A stretch of 62,730 nt of DNA from a bacterium (lineage in GTDB: Bacteria > Patescibacteriota > Minisyncoccia > UBA6257 > GWB1-50-10), in assembly GCA_021824045.1 (NCBI GenBank), contig JAKALR010000001.1:1-62730 (forward strand), given 5' to 3'. The translations under genes and the position numbers were made by a program. The notes under the pieces were generated by a model. It had not been told where the DNA came from and searched no databases. It saw only the letters and a list, made by a program, of their open reading frames with translations. Below, piece after piece: positions 3,457-61,941 of the stretch (positions are counted from its first letter, which is position 1; each line of letters starts with the position of its first letter).

Positions 3457-3600
3457 GCCTGCGGAAATTTGTTTTGAGGAAGCTCTCGGAGGCAAAAAAG
3501 CTTGGTTCCGCCTTTGGCGGATTTTTCGCCGAGAGAGCAGGATGGCTTTTGCCGCTGGAGCAAAAGAACATCCGGTTCCGAGAAATAAGTTTCCGCAGGC
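3457..3600 (-). promoter_or_regulatory. conserved multi-stem intergenic element, copy 1 (candidate structured leader RNA of uvrC)
   Basis: Closing stem GCCTGCGGAAA/TTTCCGCAGGC. Inner stems are GGCAAAAAA/TTTTTCGCC, TCCGCC-TTT-GGCGGA and CTTTTGC-CGCTGGA-GCAAAAG. Homologous to 9737-9881. Confidence 0.6.
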
Positions 3601-9712: not shown

Positions 9713-9736
9713 ACGTTATTTATATATTAAACGAGG

Positions 9737-9881
9737 AAAATGGGAAATGCCCGTGCGGCAGCTCCCGGAGGCGAAAAAGCTCGGTTCCGCCGAAGACGGA
9801 TTTTTCGCCGAGGGATAGCAGTGGCGGCTCCGCTCGCTGGAAGCGGAGAACGCCCGATGCCGGCAGGGCATTTCCCATTTT
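9737..9881 (-). promoter_or_regulatory. conserved multi-stem intergenic element, copy 2 (candidate structured leader RNA of uvrB)
   Basis: Closing stem AAAATGGGAAATGCCC/GGGCATTTCCCATTTT. Inner stems are GGCGAAAAA/TTTTTCGCC and CTCCGCT-CGCTGGA-AGCGGAG. Homologous to 3457-3600. Confidence 0.6.
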
Positions 9882-9890
9882 TCGAGTTGG

Positions 9891-12056: not shown

Positions 12057-12059
12057 TTG

Positions 12060-12105
12060 TGCGGAATACGGGAATCGAACCCGTGTCTCAACCTTGCCCC
12101 ACACC
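12060..12105 (-). pseudogene. orphan tRNA 3' half (from anticodon position 36) preceded by GGTGTGGGG
   Basis: Minus-sense GGTGTGGGG-CAAGGTTGAGACACGGGTTCGATTCCCGTATTCCGCA: anticodon-loop 3' side, T-arm and acceptor 3' strand, with no 5' half nearby. Confidence 0.7.
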
Positions 12106-12133
12106 AATCAAGGATTGAAAACTCTTATTCTTG

Positions 12134-12212: not shown

Positions 12213-12512
12213 TTAGGGCGTGCTGGTCGTCGAGGTGACCGTGCCGGTCGTCCCCGGTACCACGATTATAAGCCCTTCTCCCGGATTTTTGTAGTTGGTC
12301 TGGGCTTTCAGCTGCTTGATCAGGTTCGCCGGATCTTGGAAGTATTGGATTTCCGAAGACAAGTTCCGGTTTTCCTGCTGGAGTTGATTATAGTCGACCT
12401 GCAACGCCTGAGCTTGGCTTTCAGCGGCGTTTTTAGAACTATACAGGCTTATGAATCCCCATCCGATGACGGCGACCACCGCCATGAACACGATTGTCTT
12501 CCAGTACTTCAT
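12213..12512 (-). CDS. FtsB/DivIC-like septum formation initiator
   Basis: N-terminal TM helix followed by a coiled coil (QALQVDYNQLQQENRNLSSEIQYF). Confidence 0.6.
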   Translation of the reverse strand: MKYWKTIVFMAVVAVIGWGFISLYSSKNAAESQAQALQVDYNQLQQENRNLSSEIQYFQDPANLIKQLKAQTNYKNPGEGLIIVVPGTTGTVTSTTSTP

Positions 12513-12619
12513 CCCGTTAGAAACAAAACGCCTTTTTCATAAGCGGTTGCCTATGATGCGCGGTTAATTCGACTTGGTAAGTGATCATCTTTTTCATAAG
12601 TTTATGGTTTCTCACGGGA
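12513..12619. mobile_element. MITE-like element family 1, copy 1 (107 nt) inserted at a start codon
   Basis: Ends CCCGTTAGAAAC..GTTTCTCACGGG, internal direct repeat TTTTTCATAAG x2, flanked by TTCAT (12508-12512) and TTCAT (12620-12624). Confidence 0.8.
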
Positions 12620-12696
12620 TTCATTACCTCCTATTCTACACCCTCTCAGCCGCTGGATGAAAGAGTGGAGACGAAGGAGCGGAGGATTCTGCGGTT

Positions 12697-16614: not shown

Positions 16615-17757
16615 TTAGGCGATGGTTTTGAACGTATCGAGGAGCGCCCCGGCTGATTGTTTCCAGTCGAATCGTTTCGCATTTTCCCGGCCGGCGGCGA
16701 TCAATCGTTCCTTGGTCTTATTTTCCAACAAAACGTCTTCTATTGCCAATGCCAGCTGGTATGATTTCCAGGGATTCACGAGGATGGCGCTTTCCCCCAG
16801 CACTTCAGGCATGGGTCCCCGGTCGGAGGCCACGACGGGCGTTCCGCAGATTTGCGCCTCGAGGCACGGAAACGCGAATCCTTCGAAGAAAGACGGATAC
16901 ACGAAGACCGATGCGAGGTTGTAGAGCATGAGCAGATCCTCTTCCGTCGCTCGCCCCCAGATCAGGATGTCGTCGCGGAACGGAGAATGTTCCGCTTCGG
17001 CGAATATCTTCTCGTAGAGCCATCCCCGCGCGCCGACCAAGATCAGTTTCACGTTCTTGAATTGTTCTTTTTGCTTCAGGAGATTGAAGGCTCGGATGGT
17101 CCCGATCGCGTTTTTTCGGGGTTCCAGCGTCCCGACCTGGAGCAGGAACGGGAAATCAATATTTTTCGCCCTGGGGAACTCTCGGAGGCGTTCGTCGCCG
17201 GATTCCAGCTGCCGGTAGGAATTGTTCACGCCGGGATAGATGCGGACGATCTTCTCCGGCTTCACGTGAAACCGGTCGATGATGCTTTGGCGCGTGAACT
17301 CCGATACCGCTACGATGCGTCCCGCTTCCCGGATTTGCTTTTCGTAATTTTGTCTCCAGTGCCAGAAGTTTTTCGTCCACGTGAAGAATTCCGGGTAAAG
17401 AACGAAAGAAAGATCATGGATGGTAAGGATGTGTTTGCCGGGATTTTCAAACGACAGGATGTCCATGTGGGGGCTCCAGTAGACATCCGCCGCGACGAGG
17501 CGGTCTATTTTGGGAAAATTGAAGAAACGGTTGGCGATTCCCCAGACTTTATTGGGTATGCCGTAGTTCAGCCACGTTCCCTTCACCGTGTTTTCGAGGG
17601 GGTATCCGCCGCGGTTTTTTCCGGAGCGATTGGCGAAGAAAAGGAATTCTTCACCGGGCGCTTCGGCCGCGAGGCTCTTCGTCATGAGCCGGGTGTATTC
17701 GGGGACGCCCGAGACGATGGAAGCGTACAGTGAACGCACATCGATGAATATTTTCAT
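16615..17757 (-). CDS. glycosyltransferase family 4
   Basis: EGFAFPCLEAQICGTPVVASDRGPMPEV (EX7E region). Confidence 0.85.
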   Translation of the reverse strand: MKIFIDVRSLYASIVSGVPEYTRLMTKSLAAEAPGEEFLFFANRSGKNRGGYPLENTVKGTWLNYGIPNKVWGIANRFFNFPKIDRLVAADVYWSPHMDILSFENPGKHILTIHDLSFVLYPEFFTWTKNFWHWRQNYEKQIREAGRIVAVSEFTRQSIIDRFHVKPEKIVRIYPGVNNSYRQLESGDERLREFPRAKNIDFPFLLQVGTLEPRKNAIGTIRAFNLLKQKEQFKNVKLILVGARGWLYEKIFAEAEHSPFRDDILIWGRATEEDLLMLYNLASVFVYPSFFEGFAFPCLEAQICGTPVVASDRGPMPEVLGESAILVNPWKSYQLALAIEDVLLENKTKERLIAAGRENAKRFDWKQSAGALLDTFKTIA

Positions 17758-17863
17758 CCCGTTAGAAACAAAGCACTTTCTTCATAGGCGGTTGCCTATA
17801 GTGCGCAGTTGACTCGACTTTGTGAGTGATTTACTTTTTATAAGTTTGCGGTTTCTCACGGGA
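17758..17863. mobile_element. MITE-like element family 1, copy 2 (106 nt) inserted at a start codon
   Basis: Same termini as copy 1, flanked by TTCAT (17753-17757) and TTCAT (17864-17868). Confidence 0.8.
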
Positions 17864-17877
17864 TTCATGAAACGGTT

Positions 17878-22932: not shown

Positions 22933-23510
22933 GATTTTCTTTTAATGAAGCCGTCGAAGGTTATTCTTTCGTAGTCCAATTCATCGATGCCGTTCATTTT
23001 GTAAATTTGGTTAGTGGAAAAGATTTTTTGATCGGCGGAATCGAGACGGAGAAGCTTTTCAGCTTCGCTGACTTTCTCCCATGACGGCGCTTCGATTTCG
23101 AGATACGGATTGAGTTTCGGCCAGGTATCGATGTCGAATTCAATATCCCCTTTTTGCCAGCGGATTCTTTTGTTTTCCTCATAGAACTTATAGATCATGC
23201 CGATGCTCAGGAGGAAATCGACTGTTTTTTGGTAATCGTTCACGATGATTTCCACTTCTTTCATGCTCCGGTCGGAAGTTTTTCCATCATCGCTCGAAAC
23301 TCCCAGCCGCTGCTTGAAGGTAAGGGTAATGCGTTCGCCTTCATCCCGCAGACGAACCCATGCCGCCTGCTTATCTAAGGGAAATCCCGGGAAATCGAAA
23401 ACCTGCCGGCGATAGAAGTATTCACCGACTTTATGCGCCCCAATCGCCTTCAACTTTTCTTCGATTGCCGCCGGATCGATATCAAGGAACTTCACTTCTT
23501 TTTCTTCCAT
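22929..23510 (-). CDS. CYTH domain protein (class IV adenylyl cyclase / triphosphate tunnel metalloenzyme)
   Basis: EVKFLDID..WVRLRDEGERITLTFK..EVEI..FDIDTWP..LEIE. Confidence 0.75.
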   Translation of the reverse strand: MEEKEVKFLDIDPAAIEEKLKAIGAHKVGEYFYRRQVFDFPGFPLDKQAAWVRLRDEGERITLTFKQRLGVSSDDGKTSDRSMKEVEIIVNDYQKTVDFLLSIGMIYKFYEENKRIRWQKGDIEFDIDTWPKLNPYLEIEAPSWEKVSEAEKLLRLDSADQKIFSTNQIYKMNGIDELDYERITFDGFIKRKS

Positions 23511-23617
23511 CCCGTTAGAAACAAAACACCTTTTTTATAAGCAGCTACCTATGATGTGCTGCTGACTCGACTTTATGCGCGGACATATTTTTCATAAGTT
23601 TGTGGTTTCTCACGGGA
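23511..23617. mobile_element. MITE-like element family 1, copy 3 (107 nt) inserted at a start codon
   Basis: Same termini, flanked by TCCAT (23506-23510) and TCCAT (23618-23622). The flank differs from copies 1 and 2 but is duplicated on both sides. Confidence 0.8.
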
Positions 23618-23641
23618 TCCATGGCTTTTATGGTAACCTCT

Positions 23642-27876: not shown

Positions 27877-27949
27877 GGGGTGAAATACGTCGGGCCGCCG
27901 GTGCGGCCGTGGACAGTTGCGGGACAATATCAAGCGTATGAGCGGTCAT
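27860..27949 (-). other. candidate 29-codon leader ORF overlapping the secA start
   Basis: GGAGG-8 nt-ATG. Encodes MTAHTLDIVPQLSTAAPAARRISPHVTLN. Its first codons lie in a 20-bp stem, and its stop TAA is 12-14 nt inside secA. Confidence 0.3.
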
Positions 27950-28050
27950 GGTGGTGACCTCCAATATTTTTATTGTTGTGTGAGTGCGCATCCATGACCG
28001 CTCATACGCTTCAATTGTAAAGGTGAGTGCGCAACCGTGGCCGCACCGGC
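27897..28050. repeat. nested long inverted repeats in the secA upstream region
   Basis: Inner perfect 20-bp IR at 27932-27951 / 27992-28011. Outer 12-bp IR at 27897-27908 / 28039-28050. Direct repeat GTGAGTGCGCA x2. Confidence 0.85.
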
Positions 28051-28096
28051 AGTCCGAACCGTCTGATGCTTATCCTTAAGCATAAGGGCTATTCCA

Positions 28097-28198: not shown

Positions 28199-28341
28199 AA
28201 CGGTATTATACCACGCCTTGGAGAAAATGCAAGGGGCTCTCGCGGCTCCGTGCTCCTCATCGGCGAATTTCTCTTTTGAGTAAATCCTCCAACCGTCTCG
28301 TCGGAATCAAGCCGCACAAAATATATCGAACTCGATCTCGT

Positions 28342-28377
28342 GTCCTCACTTTTTCCCATATGGGAAAAAGTGAGGAC
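28342..28377. repeat. perfect 36-bp palindrome GTCCTCACTTTTTCCCATATGGGAAAAAGTGAGGAC
   Basis: Related palindrome TCACTTTTTCCCCTAGGGGAAAAAGTGA at 37056-37083. Confidence 0.85.
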
Positions 28378-28489
28378 AGCTCGGGATTCAGACAGCAATA
28401 TTGTGGTCATTCCCTCCTCGTCATTTGGGGATTTCTGCGTCTCAAAAAAGCCTTCTTCGGGGTACGGGGCTGTGCGGACCAGGTAAGTC

Positions 28490-36223: not shown

Positions 36224-36442
36224 TTAAAAAACCGCCCCCGGGGCGGATTGCGTAGGTTCTATCTATTGTTTGAAGCGAAAGTTATCAACAGGTTGACTTT
36301 TGCTGGTTCCCCACTTTCAATTCTTTGTTTATGCTCGCCGGGTACTTCCCGCTCAGGCTGTCTCCGGGGCGACGCCCAAGTCTTAGCCTTCGCGAAAAGT
36401 ACCCGGTTCGCCTTTATTGGTTCATCCCCTCAAGTGGGTTTG
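36224..36442 (-). ncRNA. structured ~200-nt 3' region after the hydrolase gene, ending in an intrinsic terminator
   Basis: Long irregular helix (CCGGGTACTT/AAGTACCCGG, AGGCT/AGCCT, CGC/GCG). Terminator CCGCC..GGCGG plus T6 at 36224-36246. Confidence 0.4.
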
Positions 36443-37990: not shown

Positions 37991-38049
37991 CCAGGTAGGA
38001 GAAACTCAATTTCACTTCATGCATAGCTAATTGAGTTTTCACTACCTGG
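37991..38049. mobile_element. 59-nt hairpin element, short member of family 2
   Basis: CCAGGTAGGAGAAACTCAAT..ATTGAGTTTTCACTACCTGG. The arms match those of the 143-nt element at 42327-42469. Confidence 0.65.
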
Positions 38050-40332: not shown

Positions 40333-42324
40333 CTAAATATCGATGTTCTTGGCGTAAACGGCGTTTGCCTGGATGAAGTTCTTGCGCGGTTCCACGAGCT
40401 CTCCCATCAGGACGTCAAACATCCGGTTGGCTTCAATCGCGTCATCAACGGTTATTTTCTTCATGAGGCGCGTCGCGGGATCCATGGTTGTTTCCCAAAG
40501 CTGCGAGGGGTTCATTTCGCCCAAGCCCTTGTAGCGCTGGATGTTCACGCCGTCGCCACCCATCTTTTTTATCAATTTGTCGCGTTCGTCGTCGCTGTAG
40601 GCGTACTGAAATTCTTTCCCTTTTTGAACCCGGAAAAGCGGCGGCTGGGCGATGTAGATGTAGCCGTCCTCCATGATTTTCGGAAAATACCGGTAGAAGA
40701 GCGTGAGGAGGAGCGTCCTGATGTGCGCACCATCGACGTCGGCATCGGTCATGATGACGATCTTATGGTAGCGGAGCTTCGTGATGTCAAAGTTCTCCGA
40801 TATGGCGGTTCCGAGCGCGATGACAAGCGAGCGGATTTCCTTGTTCGCGAGCATCTTATCGATTCTCGATTTTTCCACGTTCAAGATCTTTCCGCGGAGC
40901 GGGAGGATTGCCTGGAATCTCCGATCGCGCCCCTGTTTGGCGGATCCGCCTGCGGAGTCTCCCTCGACGATGAACAGTTCCGATTCCTCGGCCTTGCGGG
41001 ACGAGCAGTCGGCGAGCTTGCCGGGAAGCGTCAATCCTTCGAGCGCGCCCTTCCGGAGAACCGTGTCTTTCGCGGCCTTGGCGGCTTTCCGGGCTTTCGC
41101 GGCAATCAGGTTCTTTTCGATAATTTTCTTCGCGTCTTGGGGATGCTTCTCCAGAAATTCCTTCAGGGCTTCGTTCACGACGTATTCGACGGCGGTCCTG
41201 GCTTCCGGATTTCCCAGCCGGGCCTTGGTTTGTCCTTCGAATTGAGGTTCGTGTATTTTTATTGAAATAATCGAAACGACGCCTTCCCGGATGTCATCAC
41301 CCGTCAGATTCTCGTCCGCCTCTTTGAGGTATTCTTCTTTCCTAGCGTAATCATTCAATGTTCGCGTCATGGCGCTTCGGAGACCGGTCAAATGCATGCC
41401 GCCGTCCGACGTGTAGATGTTGTTCGCGAAGCTCAGTTCTTTGGCTTCCTGGTCGTTGATGTAGGTGATCGCGGTTTCGATCTCGATGTCCTGATACGTT
41501 TTGTGGACGTAGAAGGACTCGTCCTGTATCGACGTTTCTCCGTCGATCAGATAACTCAGGAAGGATTTCAGTCCGCCGTCGAAGTAAAAACCGTATCGAT
41601 ACGGCTCGTCTCCCCGTTCGTCCACGATCATTATCCGTACGCCCTTCGTGAGATAGGCCTGCTGCCGCAAGTGGTCGATGATCCTCTTCCGGTCATATTC
41701 TATTTTTTGGAAAATTTCGGGGTCGGCGTCGAAAATGACTTTCGTCCCGGTATGCGTCGATTTACCGTTTTTCCTGACGGCGAATTCCGGCTTGCCGCGT
41801 TTATATTCCTGGAAATAGACGGTGTTATCGCGGGAAACCTCGACGCGGAGCCATGTTGAGAGCGCGTTCACGACGCTGACGCCCACGCCGTGGAGCCCGC
41901 CGGAGACTTTGTAGGATTCGCCGCCGAATTTTCCTCCGGCATGAAGCGTGGTCAGAACCGTTTCCAGAGCCGACTTCTTGGTTTGCTGGTGGATGTCGAC
42001 CGGGATGCCGCGGCCGTCGTCGGTTACCGCGATCCGGTTGTCCTTCAGGAGTTCGATGGTTATATTCTTGGCATACCCGCCCATCGCTTCGTCGATGGAG
42101 TTGTCGACAACCTCCCAGACCAAATGGTGGAGGCCGTCGACTCCCGTGGAGCCGATATACATGCCGGGGCGTTTCCTGACCGGCTCAAGGCCCTCCAGGA
42201 CGTAAATGTCCTTGGCGCCGTAGGATGGCTCGGATTTTGCCTGCGATTTGACCTCTTTTTTGGGTTCTTGCTTCGGTTCCTTTTTGGGTTCCTGGGTTTT
42301 CTGGTTTATTGGTATTTTTACCAT
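40333..42324 (-). CDS. gyrB: DNA gyrase subunit B
   Basis: GLHHLVWEVVDNSIDE, EGDSAGGSAKQGRDR, PLRGKILNVEK. Carries a K/E/P-rich N-terminal extension. Confidence 0.95.
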   Translation of the reverse strand: MVKIPINQKTQEPKKEPKQEPKKEVKSQAKSEPSYGAKDIYVLEGLEPVRKRPGMYIGSTGVDGLHHLVWEVVDNSIDEAMGGYAKNITIELLKDNRIAVTDDGRGIPVDIHQQTKKSALETVLTTLHAGGKFGGESYKVSGGLHGVGVSVVNALSTWLRVEVSRDNTVYFQEYKRGKPEFAVRKNGKSTHTGTKVIFDADPEIFQKIEYDRKRIIDHLRQQAYLTKGVRIMIVDERGDEPYRYGFYFDGGLKSFLSYLIDGETSIQDESFYVHKTYQDIEIETAITYINDQEAKELSFANNIYTSDGGMHLTGLRSAMTRTLNDYARKEEYLKEADENLTGDDIREGVVSIISIKIHEPQFEGQTKARLGNPEARTAVEYVVNEALKEFLEKHPQDAKKIIEKNLIAAKARKAAKAAKDTVLRKGALEGLTLPGKLADCSSRKAEESELFIVEGDSAGGSAKQGRDRRFQAILPLRGKILNVEKSRIDKMLANKEIRSLVIALGTAISENFDITKLRYHKIVIMTDADVDGAHIRTLLLTLFYRYFPKIMEDGYIYIAQPPLFRVQKGKEFQYAYSDDERDKLIKKMGGDGVNIQRYKGLGEMNPSQLWETTMDPATRLMKKITVDDAIEANRMFDVLMGELVEPRKNFIQANAVYAKNIDI

Positions 42325-42326
42325 AT

Positions 42327-42469
42327 CCGGTTAGTAGAAACTCGATTGCGGGTCAATATGATTCACTGAATCGAGTCTGTTGCATATGACCTTTTTATGA
42401 ACTTTATCATCACTACTTATTCCTTTGCATTGACCCGACGGTGAATCTCATCGAGTTTTCACTACCGGG
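42327..42469. mobile_element. 143-nt hairpin element family 2 inserted at the gyrB start codon
   Basis: Ends CCGGTTAGTAGAAACTCGAT..ATCGAGTTTTCACTACCGGG, flanked by CATAT (42322-42326, containing the gyrB ATG) and CATAT (42470-42474). Confidence 0.75.
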
Positions 42470-42530
42470 CATATCAAGTCAACAAAAAATAAGCTTGTGG
42501 CCTCTTTATAGCTTTATTTTACCATACTCT

Positions 42531-58751: not shown

Positions 58752-58799
58752 TGGATTTCATAGTAACAATTACCTATCTAAAAGTCAAAATTTTAACAA

Positions 58800-58942
58800 G
58801 AAACCGTCTTATTTCGAGCGAATCATTCGGAGACCGAGCGGGCACGGCTTCCGCCCTTGAGGCGGAAGAGCGAGGTCGAGGATAAGCGCGGGCCGCCGGC
58901 TGGGGCGGGCCGACGCGGGTTCGCTCGAAATAAGACGGTTTC
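58800..58942. repeat. perfect 23-bp inverted repeat enclosing a 97-nt GC-rich spacer
   Basis: GAAACCGTCTTATTTCGAGCGAA at 58800-58822 pairs with TTCGCTCGAAATAAGACGGTTTC at 58920-58942. Inner hairpin CTTCCGCC..GGCGGAAG. Confidence 0.85.
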
Positions 58943-58948
58943 TCATCC

Positions 58949-59701
58949 TCAATCATACTCCACGGAGTCGATTCGGGCCTCCTCGCTCATGGCGAGGCTT
59001 TGGAGTATTTCTTCCAGGTCATATGGCAGGTCGGCTTCTATTTTCATCCTGCCGCCGTCCTTGAGGGGAAACTCGATTCCCTCAGCGTGGAGGAACTGCC
59101 TTTTGATGTTCACATCCTCACCCTTCTTGCCGTAAAGCTGATCCCCCACGACGGGGTGCCCGATCGAAGCCAGGTGCACCCGTATCTGGTGGGTCTTCCC
59201 CGTCAGAGGGTGAACCTCGAGGAGGGTGTATTTGCCTTTCTGGAGAACCTTGAGAACCCGGTATTCGGTCACGGCATCCTTCACCATCTTCATGTCCCTG
59301 GCATTGGTGCTTCTCTTGACGCTTCCGGACCGGAGGCCGATGGGCTTATCGATCTTTCCCCTCCCGAGAAGTTTCCCGTGGACGAGAGCAAGGTAGGTCT
59401 TGGTGACTTGGCCGGTTTGGAACAAGCCCTTCAGATATTCGAATGTCGGCTGGTTTTTCGCTATGAGGAGCATGCCGGAAGTGTCCTTGTCCAGCCGGTG
59501 GACGATTCCCGGCCTTAAAACCGGGTCATCCCCGACGGTTTTTACTTCCGGGTAGCGCTTCAAGAGCCAGTCGGTTATGAAAAGCCCCCCGACGTTCTCC
59601 ACTCCGGCTATTTTTGGCCTATGGACGGTCCACCCGGCAGGCTTATTGATAGCCAAGAAGTCCTTGTTTTCGTAGATTATATCTATGTTTTCCAGGGTCA
59701 T
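58949..59701 (-). CDS. RluA-family pseudouridine synthase (RluD-like)
   Basis: HRLDKDTSG catalytic motif. Confidence 0.9.
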   Translation of the reverse strand: MTLENIDIIYENKDFLAINKPAGWTVHRPKIAGVENVGGLFITDWLLKRYPEVKTVGDDPVLRPGIVHRLDKDTSGMLLIAKNQPTFEYLKGLFQTGQVTKTYLALVHGKLLGRGKIDKPIGLRSGSVKRSTNARDMKMVKDAVTEYRVLKVLQKGKYTLLEVHPLTGKTHQIRVHLASIGHPVVGDQLYGKKGEDVNIKRQFLHAEGIEFPLKDGGRMKIEADLPYDLEEILQSLAMSEEARIDSVEYD

Positions 59702-60910: not shown

Positions 60911-61259
60911 TGGACCTGGGGAGAATCGAACTCCCGGCTCCTCATTGTTCCCGCACTTTCCCGAGCAGGGGCGAGGTTTTAAGTGTGCAATCCCGTACAA
61001 TGTGGACCGTAGCGGATTCGAACCGCTGACCTCCTCATTGCAAATGAGGTGCTCTACCAACTAAGCTAACGGCCCCTTTCTTGAATTTAAGTATAAAAAA
61101 AGCACAGAATTCTCGCAAACCGCCTAGAAATGAGCCGCCACATCGTACGGGACAAAAGCGGTATTCTTCCGGGGCAAAATTACTTATATATAAATCACCG
61201 TAGGTACTTATCCGTTGAAAGCAAAATCGTTTGTTTTCAACCCACTGAACTATAGGCCC
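60911..61259 (-). pseudogene. degenerate tRNA-like shell Y enclosing tRNA-Ala
   Basis: 5' part: GGGCCTATAGTTCAGTGGG, a 74-nt insert, then GAATACCGCTTTTG. Helix TCCCGTAC (61145-61152) pairs with GTACGGGA (60991-60998). 3' part has T-arm GGGAG-TTCGATT-CTCCC and acceptor CAGGTCCA (G3:U70 possible). Confidence 0.55.
61003..61075 (-). tRNA. tRNA-Ala(UGC)
   Basis: GGGCCGT/ACGGTCC with G3:U70, anticodon loop TTTGCAA, T-arm AGCGG-TTCGAAT-CCGCT. Own promoter-like TTGCGA-17-TATACT at 61090-61118. Confidence 0.9.
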
Positions 61260-61271
61260 TCCGTCACATCA

Positions 61272-61550
61272 TGGTGGGCATGGAAGGAATCGAACCTTCG
61301 ACCTCTGTCTTACTTGCCCCGCACCAAAATTGCGCTTTTCATGTCTGTGCGCGTGAATGGAATCGAACCATTGACCTCTGTCTTATCAGGACAGCGTTCT
61401 ACCACTGAACTACACGCGCAATTTTCGGTGCGGGGTCAGGCAGCGTTCTTCCGGGGTGAAAATGCCATATATAACTTAGCATAAGTATTCACCCGTTGAA
61501 AGCAAAGTTTCTTGCTTTCAACCCACTGAACTACATGCCCATTATTTTTC
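61272..61550 (-). pseudogene. interrupted tRNA-Ile(GAU)-like shell X enclosing an intact tRNA-Ile
   Basis: GGGCATG..CATGCCCACCA acceptor pair. 83-nt insert in the D-loop (61449-61531). Insert after anticodon nt 35 is bounded by CCCCGCACCGAAAATTG / CAATTTTGGTGCGGGG. One base is missing in the anticodon stem. Confidence 0.65.
61348..61419 (-). tRNA. tRNA-Ile(GAU)
   Basis: GCGCGTG/CACGCGC acceptor, anticodon arm CTGTC-CTGATAA-GACAG, T-arm AATGG-TTCGATT-CCATT. Confidence 0.9.
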
Positions 61551-61727
61551 ATTTCGAACGAACGAACCAGTCATATCGAAGATATCAGGACAGCATTCTT
61601 CCGGGGCGAAAGCGCTACTCTACTGCATGACTCCTTTTAAGGGGAGTTCGGTGAGACGAAAAAGTGGGTAAAAGACTTGGCCTAAGCGGCCCGGAGCGCA
61701 CACTTTTTCGGCTTGCCGAGCTCCCCC
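61551..61727 (-). other. partial third copy of the tRNA-linked module plus a stem enclosing a terminator-like palindrome
   Basis: Contains ..CGCCCCGGAAGAATGCTGTCCTGATA (Ile-like D-stem/anticodon fragment). Stem GGGGAGCTCGG (61716-61726) pairs with CCGAACTCCCC (61641-61651). Palindrome at 61659-61708. Confidence 0.5.
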
Positions 61728-61728
61728 A

Positions 61729-61941
61729 TTACTGGGTTAAGTTTAATTTTTCGAAGCCCTGGATGTCAAATTGCACGTTTTGGGGCTGCGTCGGCGGCAG
61801 CTTCAGGGTCGCGTTGATGCTGTCGGCGAGCGAGGTCACAAAATAGAAGACAAGAATCAGGGTCGCCGCGAACATCACGAGCGCGAGAAGGATAAAAAGG
61901 TTCTGTCGGGAATTTTTGAGACTCTTGAGCTTGCCGATCAT
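61729..61941 (-). CDS. small hypothetical membrane protein
   Basis: 70 aa with one TM helix. Confidence 0.4.
   Translation of the reverse strand: MIGKLKSLKNSRQNLFILLALVMFAATLILVFYFVTSLADSINATLKLPPTQPQNVQFDIQGFEKLNLTQ

Follow-up and report, generated by a model that had tools for sequence, protein, structure and literature searches.

Within the window (the whole 62,730-nt stretch of patescibacterial DNA analysed here), gyrB lies on the minus strand as a 663-aa ORF, with a compact hairpin element sitting at its start codon. Along the gyrB strand, from 42474 to 42322, the sequence runs ATATG, then 143 nt bounded by 20-nt imperfect inverted ends, then ATATG once more; re-reading the sequence bears out this arrangement, which had been described in an initial annotation. 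In the direction of gyrB, the features of the locus are:

42516 to 42526, minus strand: extended −10-like box TATGGTAAAAT, upstream of the insertion and conserved in the relatives L005 and L006
42470 to 42474, minus strand: distal ATATG of the direct-repeat pair, holding the distal ATG (42472–42470), with the native gyrB leader retained
42413 to 42472, minus strand: 19-codon ORF and its TAG stop, beginning at the distal ATG and crossing the 5′ arm
42327 to 42469, minus strand: ORF-less hairpin element of 143 nt, beginning CCCGGTAGTGAAAACTCGAT and ending ATCGAGTTTCTACTAACCGG
42450 to 42469, minus strand: 5′ arm (‘A’ arm) CCCGGTAGTGAAAACTCGAT, with core GGTAGTGAAAACTC identical in ~60 copies, in other CPR genomes
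42327 to 42346, minus strand: 3′ arm (‘B’ arm) ATCGAGTTTCTACTAACCGG, the reverse complement of which has GTAGAAAC in place of GTGAAAAC in the A arm
42322 to 42326, minus strand: proximal copy of the direct repeat ATATG, its ATG (42324–42322) being the gyrB start codon
40333 to 42324, minus strand: gyrB, the host gene, 663 aa, with Pfam domains DNA_gyraseB, DNA_gyraseB_C, Toprim and HATPase_c

The proximal ATG does open gyrB, as had been claimed: the 663-aa ORF holds all four GyrB Pfam domains, and homologs of its product in Patescibacteria are named gyrase B. Equally, the distal ATG keeps the original upstream region, the left flank of the element aligning with the gyrB leader of relatives, and it opens only the 19-codon ORF (42472 to 42413, stop included), which ends 88 nt upstream of the gyrB ATG. 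Arising from the duplicated ATG, this is the sole ORF in the 143-nt element. The two 20-nt arms are 80% complementary, and the GTAGAAAC/GTGAAAAC difference between them represents a conserved GA/AG swap, through which the stem acquires a tandem G.T/A.C mismatch. The interior of the element bears no relation to those of other copies and folds as a long imperfect hairpin. A consensus scan for outward promoters or terminators inside the element returned only chance-level matches, on the opposite strand. Upstream of the insertion, TATGGTAAAAT is likely to be a gyrB promoter element, with the same spacing to the (distal) ATG in L005 and L006; it is absent from the output of the consensus promoter scan, which requires a −35 match.

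Syntenic relatives, with gyrB 88–91% identical, read ...ATG-GTAAAAATAC, leaving a clean 148-nt gap directly past the ATG. L003 and L004 (gyrB 91% identical) and L005 to L008 (88%) are all without the element at the syntenic locus. This empty-site comparison, which had been proposed in the initial annotation, upholds the claim that a terminal-inverted-repeat element sits exactly on the gyrB ATG and confirms, at the level of sequence alignment, that the 143-nt hairpin is a real, recent insertion and not a conserved leader. A conserved gyrB leader or cis-regulatory RNA, the alternative that had been named alongside, is ruled out by its absence from the L003–L008 alignment, and the element has no Rfam match at the gathering threshold nor any at E ≤ 1. 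Only the size of the duplication needs revision: the 5-nt direct repeat is correct as read, but the ‘5-bp’ duplication probably spans 4 bp (TATG), since the family norm is a 4-bp TATG beside CCNGG termini, and the extra A in the gyrB repeat may instead close the right arm (CCGGA). Counting this A (42326) with the element brings its length to 144 nt.

Further elements lie elsewhere in the window:

37991 to 38049, minus strand: second, 59-nt copy of the gyrB-element family (CCAGGTAGTGAAAACTCAAT...ATTGAGTTTCTCCTACCTGG), flanked by AAA/AAA, between a stop codon and the SD/ATG of the next gene
12508 to 12624, minus strand: family-1 element, 107 nt, with ATGAA/ATGAA repeats, where a DivIC-like gene begins
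17753 to 17868, minus strand: family-1 element, 106 nt, with ATGAA/ATGAA repeats, where a GT4 glycosyltransferase gene begins
23506 to 23622, minus strand: family-1 element, 107 nt, with ATGGA/ATGGA repeats, where a CYTH-domain gene begins

The three family-1 elements had also been reported to lie on ATGs, and this proved correct, with ATGAA/ATGAA at two of them, ATGGA/ATGGA at the third, and each proximal ATG opening a genuine gene. No GIY-YIG ORF was found in the 62.7-kb window; the idea that the window elements are remnants of such ORFs was rejected, as tblastn found none.

Beyond the window, CCNGGTAGTGAAAACTCRAT is present in 57 loci, nearly all from Patescibacteria, and the 20-nt end sequence occurs in ~60 copies over many Patescibacteria MAGs. 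The 68 paired elements, in each of which a single A arm is matched with a single B arm, come in two size classes, and their interiors are not conserved. An inner stem-loop beside the A arm of the gyrB element recurs in other copies. In Harrisonbacteria MHJJ01 there are two interior types at 4–5 loci each; such identical interiors at different loci within one MAG indicate that the ORF-less copies proliferate. Those interiors hold no recognisable remnants of a nuclease ORF, which counts against the explanation favoured below. A search of the 57 loci for a full-length IS with the same ends gave only arm pairs of poor quality (3–4 mismatches) at separations of 0.35–3.5 kb.

The longer relatives, at ~310 bp (290–325 bp), contain only an 85–97-aa single-domain GIY-YIG ORF between their arms. 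In L040 and L039 this ORF, matching Pfam GIY-YIG (E = 1.9e-18), lies exactly between the arms, and in one ORF-bearing relative the domain spans residues 3–72 of 91. Among distinct GIY-YIG ORFs collected from metagenomes, complementary flanking arms were found for 56 of 63, an ATG at both junctions for 39 of 63 and a downstream host ORF no shorter than 70 codons for 35 of 63. These ORFs fit several co-varying arm subfamilies, and their stop codon overlaps or abuts the right arm. In 13 elements the host ATG and the nuclease ORF form one in-frame fusion, and 8 others have a short ORF that opens at the host ATG and terminates 2 nt ahead of the nuclease ATG. Fusion or tight coupling is seen in only ~60% of ORF-bearing elements. 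The nuclease stop lies ~21 nt upstream of the host ATG.

Turning to target choice, the repeats that flank the family are TATG (21 copies), TATGA (3), TTGA (5), CATG (3) and TATA (2), together with TAAA, TTAA, TCTA, TCAA, CGATG, AATGA and one CATA; the two flanks thus co-vary for at least 12 different sequences and, since they vary yet match across copies, the duplications are true ones. In element orientation, TATG outnumbers CATA by ~25:1. Start codons of long ORFs are the insertion site for 28 of 63 copies under strict scoring and ~35 of 63 under lenient scoring, with TATG-type copies on strict start codons in 17 of 22 cases (77%); the expected start-codon share is 7.6% when every TATG site is counted and 21% when only the non-coding ones are. 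The form of the ATG-type target differs between subfamilies (TATG for CC...GG arms, ATGAA/ATGGA for TCCCG...CGGGA arms), and the earlier suggestion that the ATG itself is the common denominator is sustained: across several arm subfamilies, targets that contain ATG and coincide with genuine start codons are in strong excess. This excess reflects insertion preference and/or purifying selection against other sites, and the two are not cleanly divisible.

Only the 4 junction bases carry signal in a search for an extended target motif or an upstream SD, and no G-rich SD was seen. A weak A-richness is apparent at −14 to −12 upstream of the insertion points. Inspection by eye for guide-like covariation between the duplication and the arm-adjacent bases found none. 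Elements keep the orientation of the host gene even on the locally minority strand; replication-strand bias is accordingly disfavoured as the cause of orientation, with 23 of 68 elements on the locally minority coding strand (a crude strand proxy) still following the host gene. The ORF-less copies have no conserved stop near the host ATG, their uORF ends being scattered, and among ~30 such copies at start codons only L042 reads through in frame. Excision at the RNA level, as by a group I intron, was considered and set aside: the boundaries do not fit a 5′-exon U with a 3′-terminal G, and 60-nt copies are too small.

As RNA, the gyrB element has a predicted fold of −47.8 kcal/mol (z = −4.6; none of 200 shuffles matched this stability). 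It behaves as a modular hairpin, and bases near the proximal AUG have the same probabilities of being unpaired as in a reconstructed mRNA of the empty site. We suggest that the element would fold as a self-contained hairpin within gyrB mRNA, so that the native leader and the proximal AUG would come to lie side by side with local structure at the AUG unchanged; in addition, ribosomes starting at the distal AUG may melt the 5′ arm as they read the 19-codon ORF. With its AUG context unchanged and its 5′ arm melted in this way, we infer from the modelled fold that gyrB would remain expressed despite the element.

Drawing these observations together, insertion at gyrB duplicated (A)TATG, such that one ATG stayed with the native leader and the other with the gyrB ORF. 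We propose that ORF-less copies are mobilised in trans by a GIY-YIG nuclease, and that this enzyme, by analogy with the Ssn nucleases discussed below, recognises a single DNA strand folded into the mismatch-marked hairpin and cuts beside the hairpin base, with the non-palindromic 4–5-nt target serving to fix the orientation of insertion. By landing on (T)ATG, a promoter-less, SD-less nuclease gene could then be translated from the start signals of the host, either as an in-frame fusion or through stop–start coupling, whilst the duplicated ATG would keep the host gene alive. Both the transposition chemistry and mobilisation in trans by the nuclease are put forward by analogy; to our knowledge GIY-YIG enzymes are hydrolases, none being known as a transposase. 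The conserved GA/AG swap and the fixed orientation of TATG hint, indirectly, at strand specificity. In some arm subfamilies the A and B arms are flipped relative to the ORF, and the role of the mismatch is therefore uncertain.

The gyrB element is shorter than ~500 bp and without coding capacity, has terminal inverted repeats and a target duplication with an empty site, and belongs to a set of multiple dispersed copies, all of which are features of MITEs. Taken as a whole, we consider it probable that the best explanation is of a non-autonomous, ORF-less, MITE-like copy of a hairpin-ended mobile family widespread in Patescibacteria. More ambitious is a joint reading, for and against which we find the balance to be about level: an autonomous class of ~300 bp, consisting of two complementary, mismatch-marked arms of ~20 bp and a gene for an ~88-aa Ssn-like GIY-YIG nuclease, would insert at start codons in fixed orientation, the ATG being rebuilt by the 4–5-bp duplication; the nuclease would be translated via the promoter, ribosome-binding region and start codon of the host, with the host ORF re-initiated ~21 nt past the nuclease stop, and a conserved 10–14-nt pairing between the start region of the nuclease gene and its KEHN codons would gate translation.

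Several other explanations have to be set against these. That the insertion is an assembly artefact or a chimera at a repeat seems scarcely credible: the L001 contig does break, and terminate, within the gyrB element, but a contig break is expected inside a multi-copy repeat, two independent assemblies span the element identically with the same flanks, and the element is present in L002, an independent assembly of the same species whose GyrB is 100% identical. Also highly unlikely, if somewhat less so, is a role for the hairpin, original or acquired, as a regulatory RNA structure in the gyrB leader (an RNase III site, a stabiliser or a translational control) that is kept for its function. A very stable structure does abut the start codon of an essential gene, it is identical in two assemblies, and its inner stem-loop beside the A arm recurs elsewhere; against this, orthologous leaders at 88–91% gyrB identity lack it, Rfam offers no match even at E ≤ 1, the same arms precede dozens of unrelated genes, and local structure at the AUG is unaffected by the element.

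Closer in kind to the mobile-family explanation is an ordinary MITE of a DDE insertion sequence (IS1380-, IS5- or IS701-like) that makes a 4–5-bp duplication, with the GIY-YIG ORFs as passengers or secondary insertions and the start-codon enrichment as purifying selection in gene-dense CPR genomes. The anatomy of inverted ends, short variable duplication and many ORF-less copies does match, and selection certainly purges intragenic insertions, long ORFs covering 87% of the surveyed DNA; we nonetheless regard this as improbable, as the 57 loci hold no pair of good arms 0.35–3.5 kb apart, the GIY-YIG ORFs sit exactly between arms in those 56 of 63 distinct cases and in several co-varying subfamilies, and a 25:1 ratio of TATG over CATA is unexpected for a symmetric transposase with selection acting on a symmetric hairpin. 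Alternatively, there may be no duplication at all, but ssDNA insertion 3′ of a fixed tetranucleotide in the ‘peel and paste’ manner of IS200/IS605, with a similar tetranucleotide borne at the right end of the element. Hairpin ends, strand asymmetry, a single fixed orientation and a 4-nt target would all suit such a process, and the Ssn enzymes, the nearest nucleases to have been characterised, are active solely on ssDNA and on a single strand (PMC11893778). However, both flanks co-vary at many non-TATG sites (TTGA at five, CATG at three and others), which a fixed, element-borne end cannot explain and which therefore counts against it; where IS200/IS605 elements have no duplication, a fixed target and subterminal hairpins, the present family departs from this set, its hairpins being terminal, and no HUH transposase is present. 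We thus rate this possibility very low.

The closest described system is that of the Ssn nucleases (CDD family cd10448) and their hairpin repeats. The best solved-structure matches of the CPR nucleases, a point against the favoured explanation, are the UPF0213 proteins BH0048 and EF2693, and SLX1. Ssn is a single-domain GIY-YIG enzyme that binds hairpin repeats as ssDNA, strand-specifically, and cuts upstream (Chenal 2025, Nat Commun, PMC11893778). Its genes are flanked by hairpin repeats (NTS/SRM), with NTS-ssnA-NTS having been likened to an insertion sequence and the repeats paralleled with the IS200/IS605 and REP/RAYT systems; Rickettsia is among the SRM-rich genera, and the role proposed in Neisseria is the control of transformation (PMC11893778). 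The words ‘duplication’, ‘start codon’ and ‘Patescibacteria’ are absent from the text of that paper, which has no treatment of target duplication, start-codon location, host co-orientation or host translation signals (PMC11893778). The likeness concerns the ORF-bearing CPR relatives and not the gyrB copy, and comprises a ~90-aa single-domain GIY-YIG gene bracketed by hairpin repeats, directionality of those repeats, and many ORF-less repeat copies within the same genomes; the difference is that each Ssn repeat forms its own small hairpin, whereas the CPR arms pair together around the ORF.

Other known systems share some of these traits. Correia elements, the MITEs of Neisseria, are short, ORF-less and present in many copies, with terminal inverted repeats and a target duplication, and are co-transcribed as hairpins; they are DDE-derived, duplicate TA and show no comparable preference for start codons or orientation, and they differ from the CPR family in that its ORF-bearing relatives encode a GIY-YIG nuclease in only ~300 bp. 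IS200/IS605 and REP/RAYT systems are very small and strand-specific, recognise hairpins, use a non-palindromic 4–5-nt target and have ORF-less derivatives; they employ an HUH tyrosine transposase with subterminal hairpins and no duplication, whereas the co-varying CPR flanks denote a true duplication and the enzyme is GIY-YIG. Rickettsia palindromic elements (RPEs) are palindromic selfish DNA of reduced genomes that lie in frame inside ORFs and are translated; here too palindromic DNA is tolerated at protein-coding genes of reduced genomes, but the CPR element occupies the edge of the ORF, where it restores the start codon. Finally, the free-standing homing genes of phages (GIY-YIG seg, HNH mob) are small, promoter-less, co-oriented and dependent on host transcription, and recombination copies them into the homologous allele, a process with neither inverted ends nor duplications; in common with them, the CPR elements wedge a small promoter-less nuclease gene between host genes, but they enter unrelated genes at a 4-nt target.

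In the literature library searched, we came across no account of hairpin or GIY-YIG elements that target start codons in CPR. Should the joint reading hold, CPR may host the smallest autonomous mobile elements known, at ~300 bp with one nuclease gene and two arms, and these would cope with a gene-dense, streamlined genome by landing on and restoring start codons and borrowing expression signals. The recently discovered Ssn-type single-strand nucleases would be placed among mobile elements that follow a clear target rule, and nature would offer an instance of insertion at translation starts that is specific for both sequence and orientation, with the enzyme, folded arms and TATG providing testable material for ssDNA tools. 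It would also explain the recurrent hairpins before essential genes such as gyrB in Patescibacteria. Annotators should note that a gene preceded by such a hairpin does not begin at the first ATG on the upstream side of it.

At the start of gyrB, the minus strand runs ...TTGTTGACTTG-ATATG-[CCCGGTAGTGAAAACTCGAT...103 nt...ATCGAGTTTCTACTAACCGG]-ATATG-GTAAAAATACC..., and the description of this arrangement at 42322-42474 in the initial annotation is correct both in its coordinates and in its minus-strand reading:

42469-42327, minus strand: 143-nt hairpin element
42474-42470, minus strand: distal ATATG, left with the native gyrB leader
42326-42322, minus strand: proximal ATATG, with the gyrB start codon (42324-42322)

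As had been claimed, the proximal ATG opens gyrB, encoding a 663-aa protein with DNA_gyraseB, DNA_gyraseB_C, Toprim and HATPase_c domains, and the distal ATG opens just 19 codons, with a stop 88 nt upstream of the gyrB ATG; the gene 5' of gyrB encodes an Fe/Mn superoxide dismutase. The ends of the element (20 nt each) are 80% complementary, and in its entirety it folds into a single long hairpin (-47.8 kcal/mol, z = -4.6; 0/200 shuffles as stable).

This hairpin is an insertion. GyrB homologs place the contig in the Patescibacteria (CPR), near Jorgensen-/Brennerbacteria, and the closest element-free loci (L003/L004, GyrB 91% identical) share the FUR-ABC-SOD-gyrB-L10-L12 synteny of the window; in these, and in L005-L008 (GyrB 88% identical), the gene starts as ...TTATTGACTTAAA-ATG-GTAAAAATAC... 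or ...CCCTTATTTTTT-ATG-GTGAAAATAC..., such that alignment leaves the element as a clean 148-nt gap exactly 3' of the ATG. A conserved gyrB leader RNA is rejected by these empty sites, and no Rfam family matches the sequence. L002, from an independently assembled genome of this species, has the element base for base, and a third contig (L001) breaks off within it; contig breaks are often caused by repeats. In the window and in L005/L006, TATGGTAAAAT, similar to an extended -10 box, lies ~45-55 nt 5' of the ancestral gyrB ATG and is the probable gyrB promoter. The gene strand has two copies of the 10-mer TATGGTAAAA, at 42517-42526 (the putative extended -10 region) and at 42316-42325 (the gyrB start, T-ATG-GTA-AAA); both copies are kept in relatives and the recurrence is probably chance. 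Several close Patescibacteria GyrB homologs of ~1030-1100 aa (P0011, P0028, P0030-P0032, P0108 and P0114) carry an intein domain (PF14890), so that gyrB in this group has been repeatedly colonised by different selfish elements.

The claim of an inverted-repeat element inserted on the gyrB ATG is thus supported by the empty sites, and it extends to a wider family. A search of one genome per species for CCNGGTAGTGAAAACTCRAT turned up 57 loci, almost all in Patescibacteria MAGs (Harrison-, Jorgensen-, Brenner-, Lipton- and Colwellbacteria, Paceibacteria, and bins labelled Saccharibacteria), from which arm pairing yielded 68 elements, each with one A arm (5'; GGTAGTGAAAACTC) and one B arm (3'; reverse complement GGTAGTAGAAACTC). 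The arms differ by a conserved GA/AG swap, which gives the stem a tandem G.T/A.C mismatch and so makes the two strands distinguishable. Sizes cluster at ~56-86 nt and 122-150 nt; across lineages the ends are near-invariant and the interiors unrelated. In many copies the A arm is directly followed by a GC-rich stem-loop of variable sequence (6 bp or more in 40/63 copies vs 12% of shuffles). Copies at several loci of one MAG have the same interior, which argues that ORF-less copies multiply, and adjacent units of tandem arrays have one TATG in common. The window copy qualifies as a MITE on all the structural criteria that were tested, with the GIY-YIG nuclease described below as its putative mobilising enzyme. 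The window holds a further copy:

37991-38049: 59-nt second copy with gyrB-type ends, between a stop codon and the SD/ATG of the next gene

Matched flanking repeats comprise TATG (21 copies), TTGA (5), TATGA and CATG (3 each), TATA (2) and, once each, TAAA, TTAA, TCTA, TCAA, TTTG, TGAA, CGATG, AATGA and CATA. As the repeats vary between copies yet match within each copy, they represent a true target duplication of ~4 (to 5) bp, and this co-variation of the flanks excludes an IS200/IS605 derivative with its fixed end. At gyrB, the 5-bp duplication originally proposed stands as a 5-nt repeat, but going by the rest of the family the duplication is likely to be TATG, and the fifth base (A) could be the element's own, as the last base of its CCGGA terminus. 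The sequence signal is confined to the four junction positions and, with the A arm set left, TATG outnumbers CATA by ~25:1.

With each element first removed in silico, 28/63 copies lie on a strictly defined start codon (the ATG of an ORF of 98 or more codons, an in-frame stop lying close upstream and no in-frame ATG upstream), rising to ~35/63 under looser criteria. For TATG-type copies the figure is 17/22, the background by the same criteria being 7.6% for TATG sites overall and 21% for those outside long ORFs; a binomial p computed on 20/27 keeps its order of magnitude with 17/22. Selection and targeting may each contribute to this excess. Most remaining copies sit at gene ends: TATGA and AATGA targets are overlapping stop and start codons, TTGA and TAAA targets include the stop of the upstream gene, and elsewhere the upstream ORF now terminates at the element's own TAG, at position +5. 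Replication-strand bias is rejected as a sufficient cause of orientation, since the 23/68 elements on the locally minority strand (by a crude strand proxy) are still co-oriented with the host gene. One copy with a palindromic duplication, CATG (L027:5303-5437), lies opposite to both neighbouring genes, which fits an orientation set by target sequence rather than by the gene.

The three further ATG-sited elements first reported in the window (family 1; 106-107 nt) were likewise borne out, each proximal ATG opening a real gene (DivIC-like, GT4 glycosyltransferase and CYTH). Two read ATGAA-TCCCGTGAGAAACC...GTTTCTAACGGG-ATGAA and one ATGGA-...-ATGGA, the repeat co-varying from copy to copy; an equivalent parse has a 4-bp duplication (TGAA/TGGA) and arms T...A, with the element's final A completing the ATG, such that the ATG is rebuilt under both. 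The view that the ATG is the common denominator is supported, with ATG in the junctions of families with unlike arms and duplication offsets.

In two long copies from genome loci, L040 (317 nt) and L039 (306 nt), an ORF is bracketed exactly by the arms, the 91-aa product of L040 matching Pfam GIY-YIG (E = 1.9e-18). A metagenome search with the alignment of the two proteins returned 404 relatives; among the best 80 of the 404 loci, 56 of 63 distinct ORFs (85-97 aa) lie between ~20-bp complementary arms (~290-325 bp in total), with an ATG at both junctions in 39 elements and, downstream in 35, a host ORF of 70 codons or more. These fall into several arm subfamilies, each with its own duplication, and most retain the dinucleotide swap at equal distance from the end:

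Duplication and arm of the ORF-bearing subfamilies
gyrB type: TATG-CCAGGTAGTGAAAAYTCGAC
family-1-like: ATGAA or ATGGA-TCCYGTAGTAGAATTT
subfamily: TATG-CCCCGTAGAGAAATTT
subfamily: (G)TTGA-CCCCGTAGTAGAATTT
subfamily: ATGGA-TCATGTAGTGAG
subfamily: TATG-CCCAGTAATACAAC
subfamily: ATG-CCCGGTGCTACAAC

No SD-like sequence precedes the nuclease ATG in ORF-bearing elements. Instead, the host ATG is in frame with the nuclease ORF in 13 elements (a fusion), opens a short ORF ending 2 nt ahead of the nuclease ATG in 8 (TGATTATG) or 10-23 nt 5' of it in 7, or opens an out-of-frame overlapping ORF in 7. From the nuclease stop to the host ATG downstream, the distance is 8-34 nt (mode 21). A 10-14-nt perfect inverted repeat pairs the nuclease start region (ATTATGTTC plus 3-6 untranslated upstream bases) with the KEHNxG codons ~83 nt downstream in 46/56 elements (L066-L145, e.g. 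L067:1470-1790; L039), and co-varies (CGCGATTATG with HNR, TTGATTATG with HNQ, CAGATTATG with HNL). In L039:2205-2511 the segment between the repeat halves is inverted and the ORF split; the repeat might gate translation or act as an invertible switch. ORF-less hairpins also occur immediately 5' of ORF-bearing copies (L077:150-300, L112:1380-1450, L122:1338-1470 and L039:2514-2573), an arrangement pointing to successive insertions at the duplicated target.

Hairpin repeats linked to a small GIY-YIG nuclease are a known kind of system; to our knowledge, the Ssn nucleases are the sole characterised single-domain GIY-YIG proteins tied to such repeats. The ORF-bearing relatives resemble Ssn/SRM in protein size, domain, flanking hairpin repeats and directionality; their products are candidate members of the Ssn clade (cd10448), with UPF0213 and SLX1 as best solved-structure matches. 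Ssn genes are bracketed by hairpin repeats, one strand of which is bound as ssDNA and cut just upstream (PMC11893778), and the strand-marking mismatch and fixed orientation seen here would fit recognition of this type. By analogy, the GIY-YIG nuclease probably mobilises ORF-bearing and ORF-less copies alike, and the non-palindromic 4-5-nt target would fix orientation; sense landing on (T)ATG would allow host signals to drive translation of a nuclease gene that lacks promoter and SD, the duplicated ATG preserving the host gene, which would explain the ATG common to families with different arms and offsets. A duplication generated by a hydrolytic GIY-YIG enzyme might arise from staggered cuts followed by host ligation/fill-in, or by another route. 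At gyrB, the ORF-less copy is probably near neutral: in the folded mRNA the hairpin is a self-contained module and unpaired probabilities at the proximal AUG equal those of the reconstructed ancestral mRNA, the stem base would bring the native SD-less, U/A-rich leader beside this AUG, and ribosomes initiating at the distal AUG would melt the 5' arm. The Ssn paper (PMC11893778) nowhere uses ‘duplication’, ‘start codon’ or ‘Patescibacteria’ in its text, and a literature search found no account of such elements in CPR; oriented start-codon insertion that rebuilds the ATG, seemingly using host translation signals, looks to be undescribed.

tRNA genes are a second genomic habitat of these nuclease genes, other small GIY-YIG ORFs adjoining or lying within them at L032:3120-3560 and L048:1480-1900; in L032 the tRNA 5' part (GGCGTAGCTCAGTGGTAGA...) is duplicated, one on each side of the ORF. 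The window itself has split or interrupted tRNA-like genes at 60990-61740 (minus strand), where a 5' half at ~61546 (GGGCATGTAGTTCAGTGGG plus hairpin TTGAAAGCAAG...CTTTCAAC) and its matching 3' half, ending CATGCCCACCA at ~61275, enclose a whole tRNA-Ile gene; a similar second 5' half lies at ~61259, and 61186-61259 and 61467-61540 form a pair of repeats with 80% identity. At 12057-12130, directly 3' of tRNA-Gly(CCC), is an orphan tRNA 3' half (GGGGCAAGGTTGAGACACGGGTTCGATTCCCGTATTCCGCACA), 83% identical to the matching part of that tRNA, which may be an integration scar or a partial duplication.

Three other hairpins of 144-159 nt lie off start codons and have no match in Rfam, the first two sharing a core of 84% identity:

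3457-3600: intergenic, upstream of uvrC
9730-9888: intergenic, upstream of uvrB
58799-58943: intergenic, downstream of a 250-aa ORF (58949-59701); perfect 24-nt arms

Further palindromes lie at 36338-36406, 27890-28057, 28341-28378 and 61641-61726; these four are a 69-nt hairpin with ends CCGGGTAC... and CGA/CGA flanks, a nested inverted-repeat pair (19 + 20 nt), a perfect 38-nt palindrome centred on CATATG, and an 86-nt hairpin with GGGGAG...CTCCCC ends.
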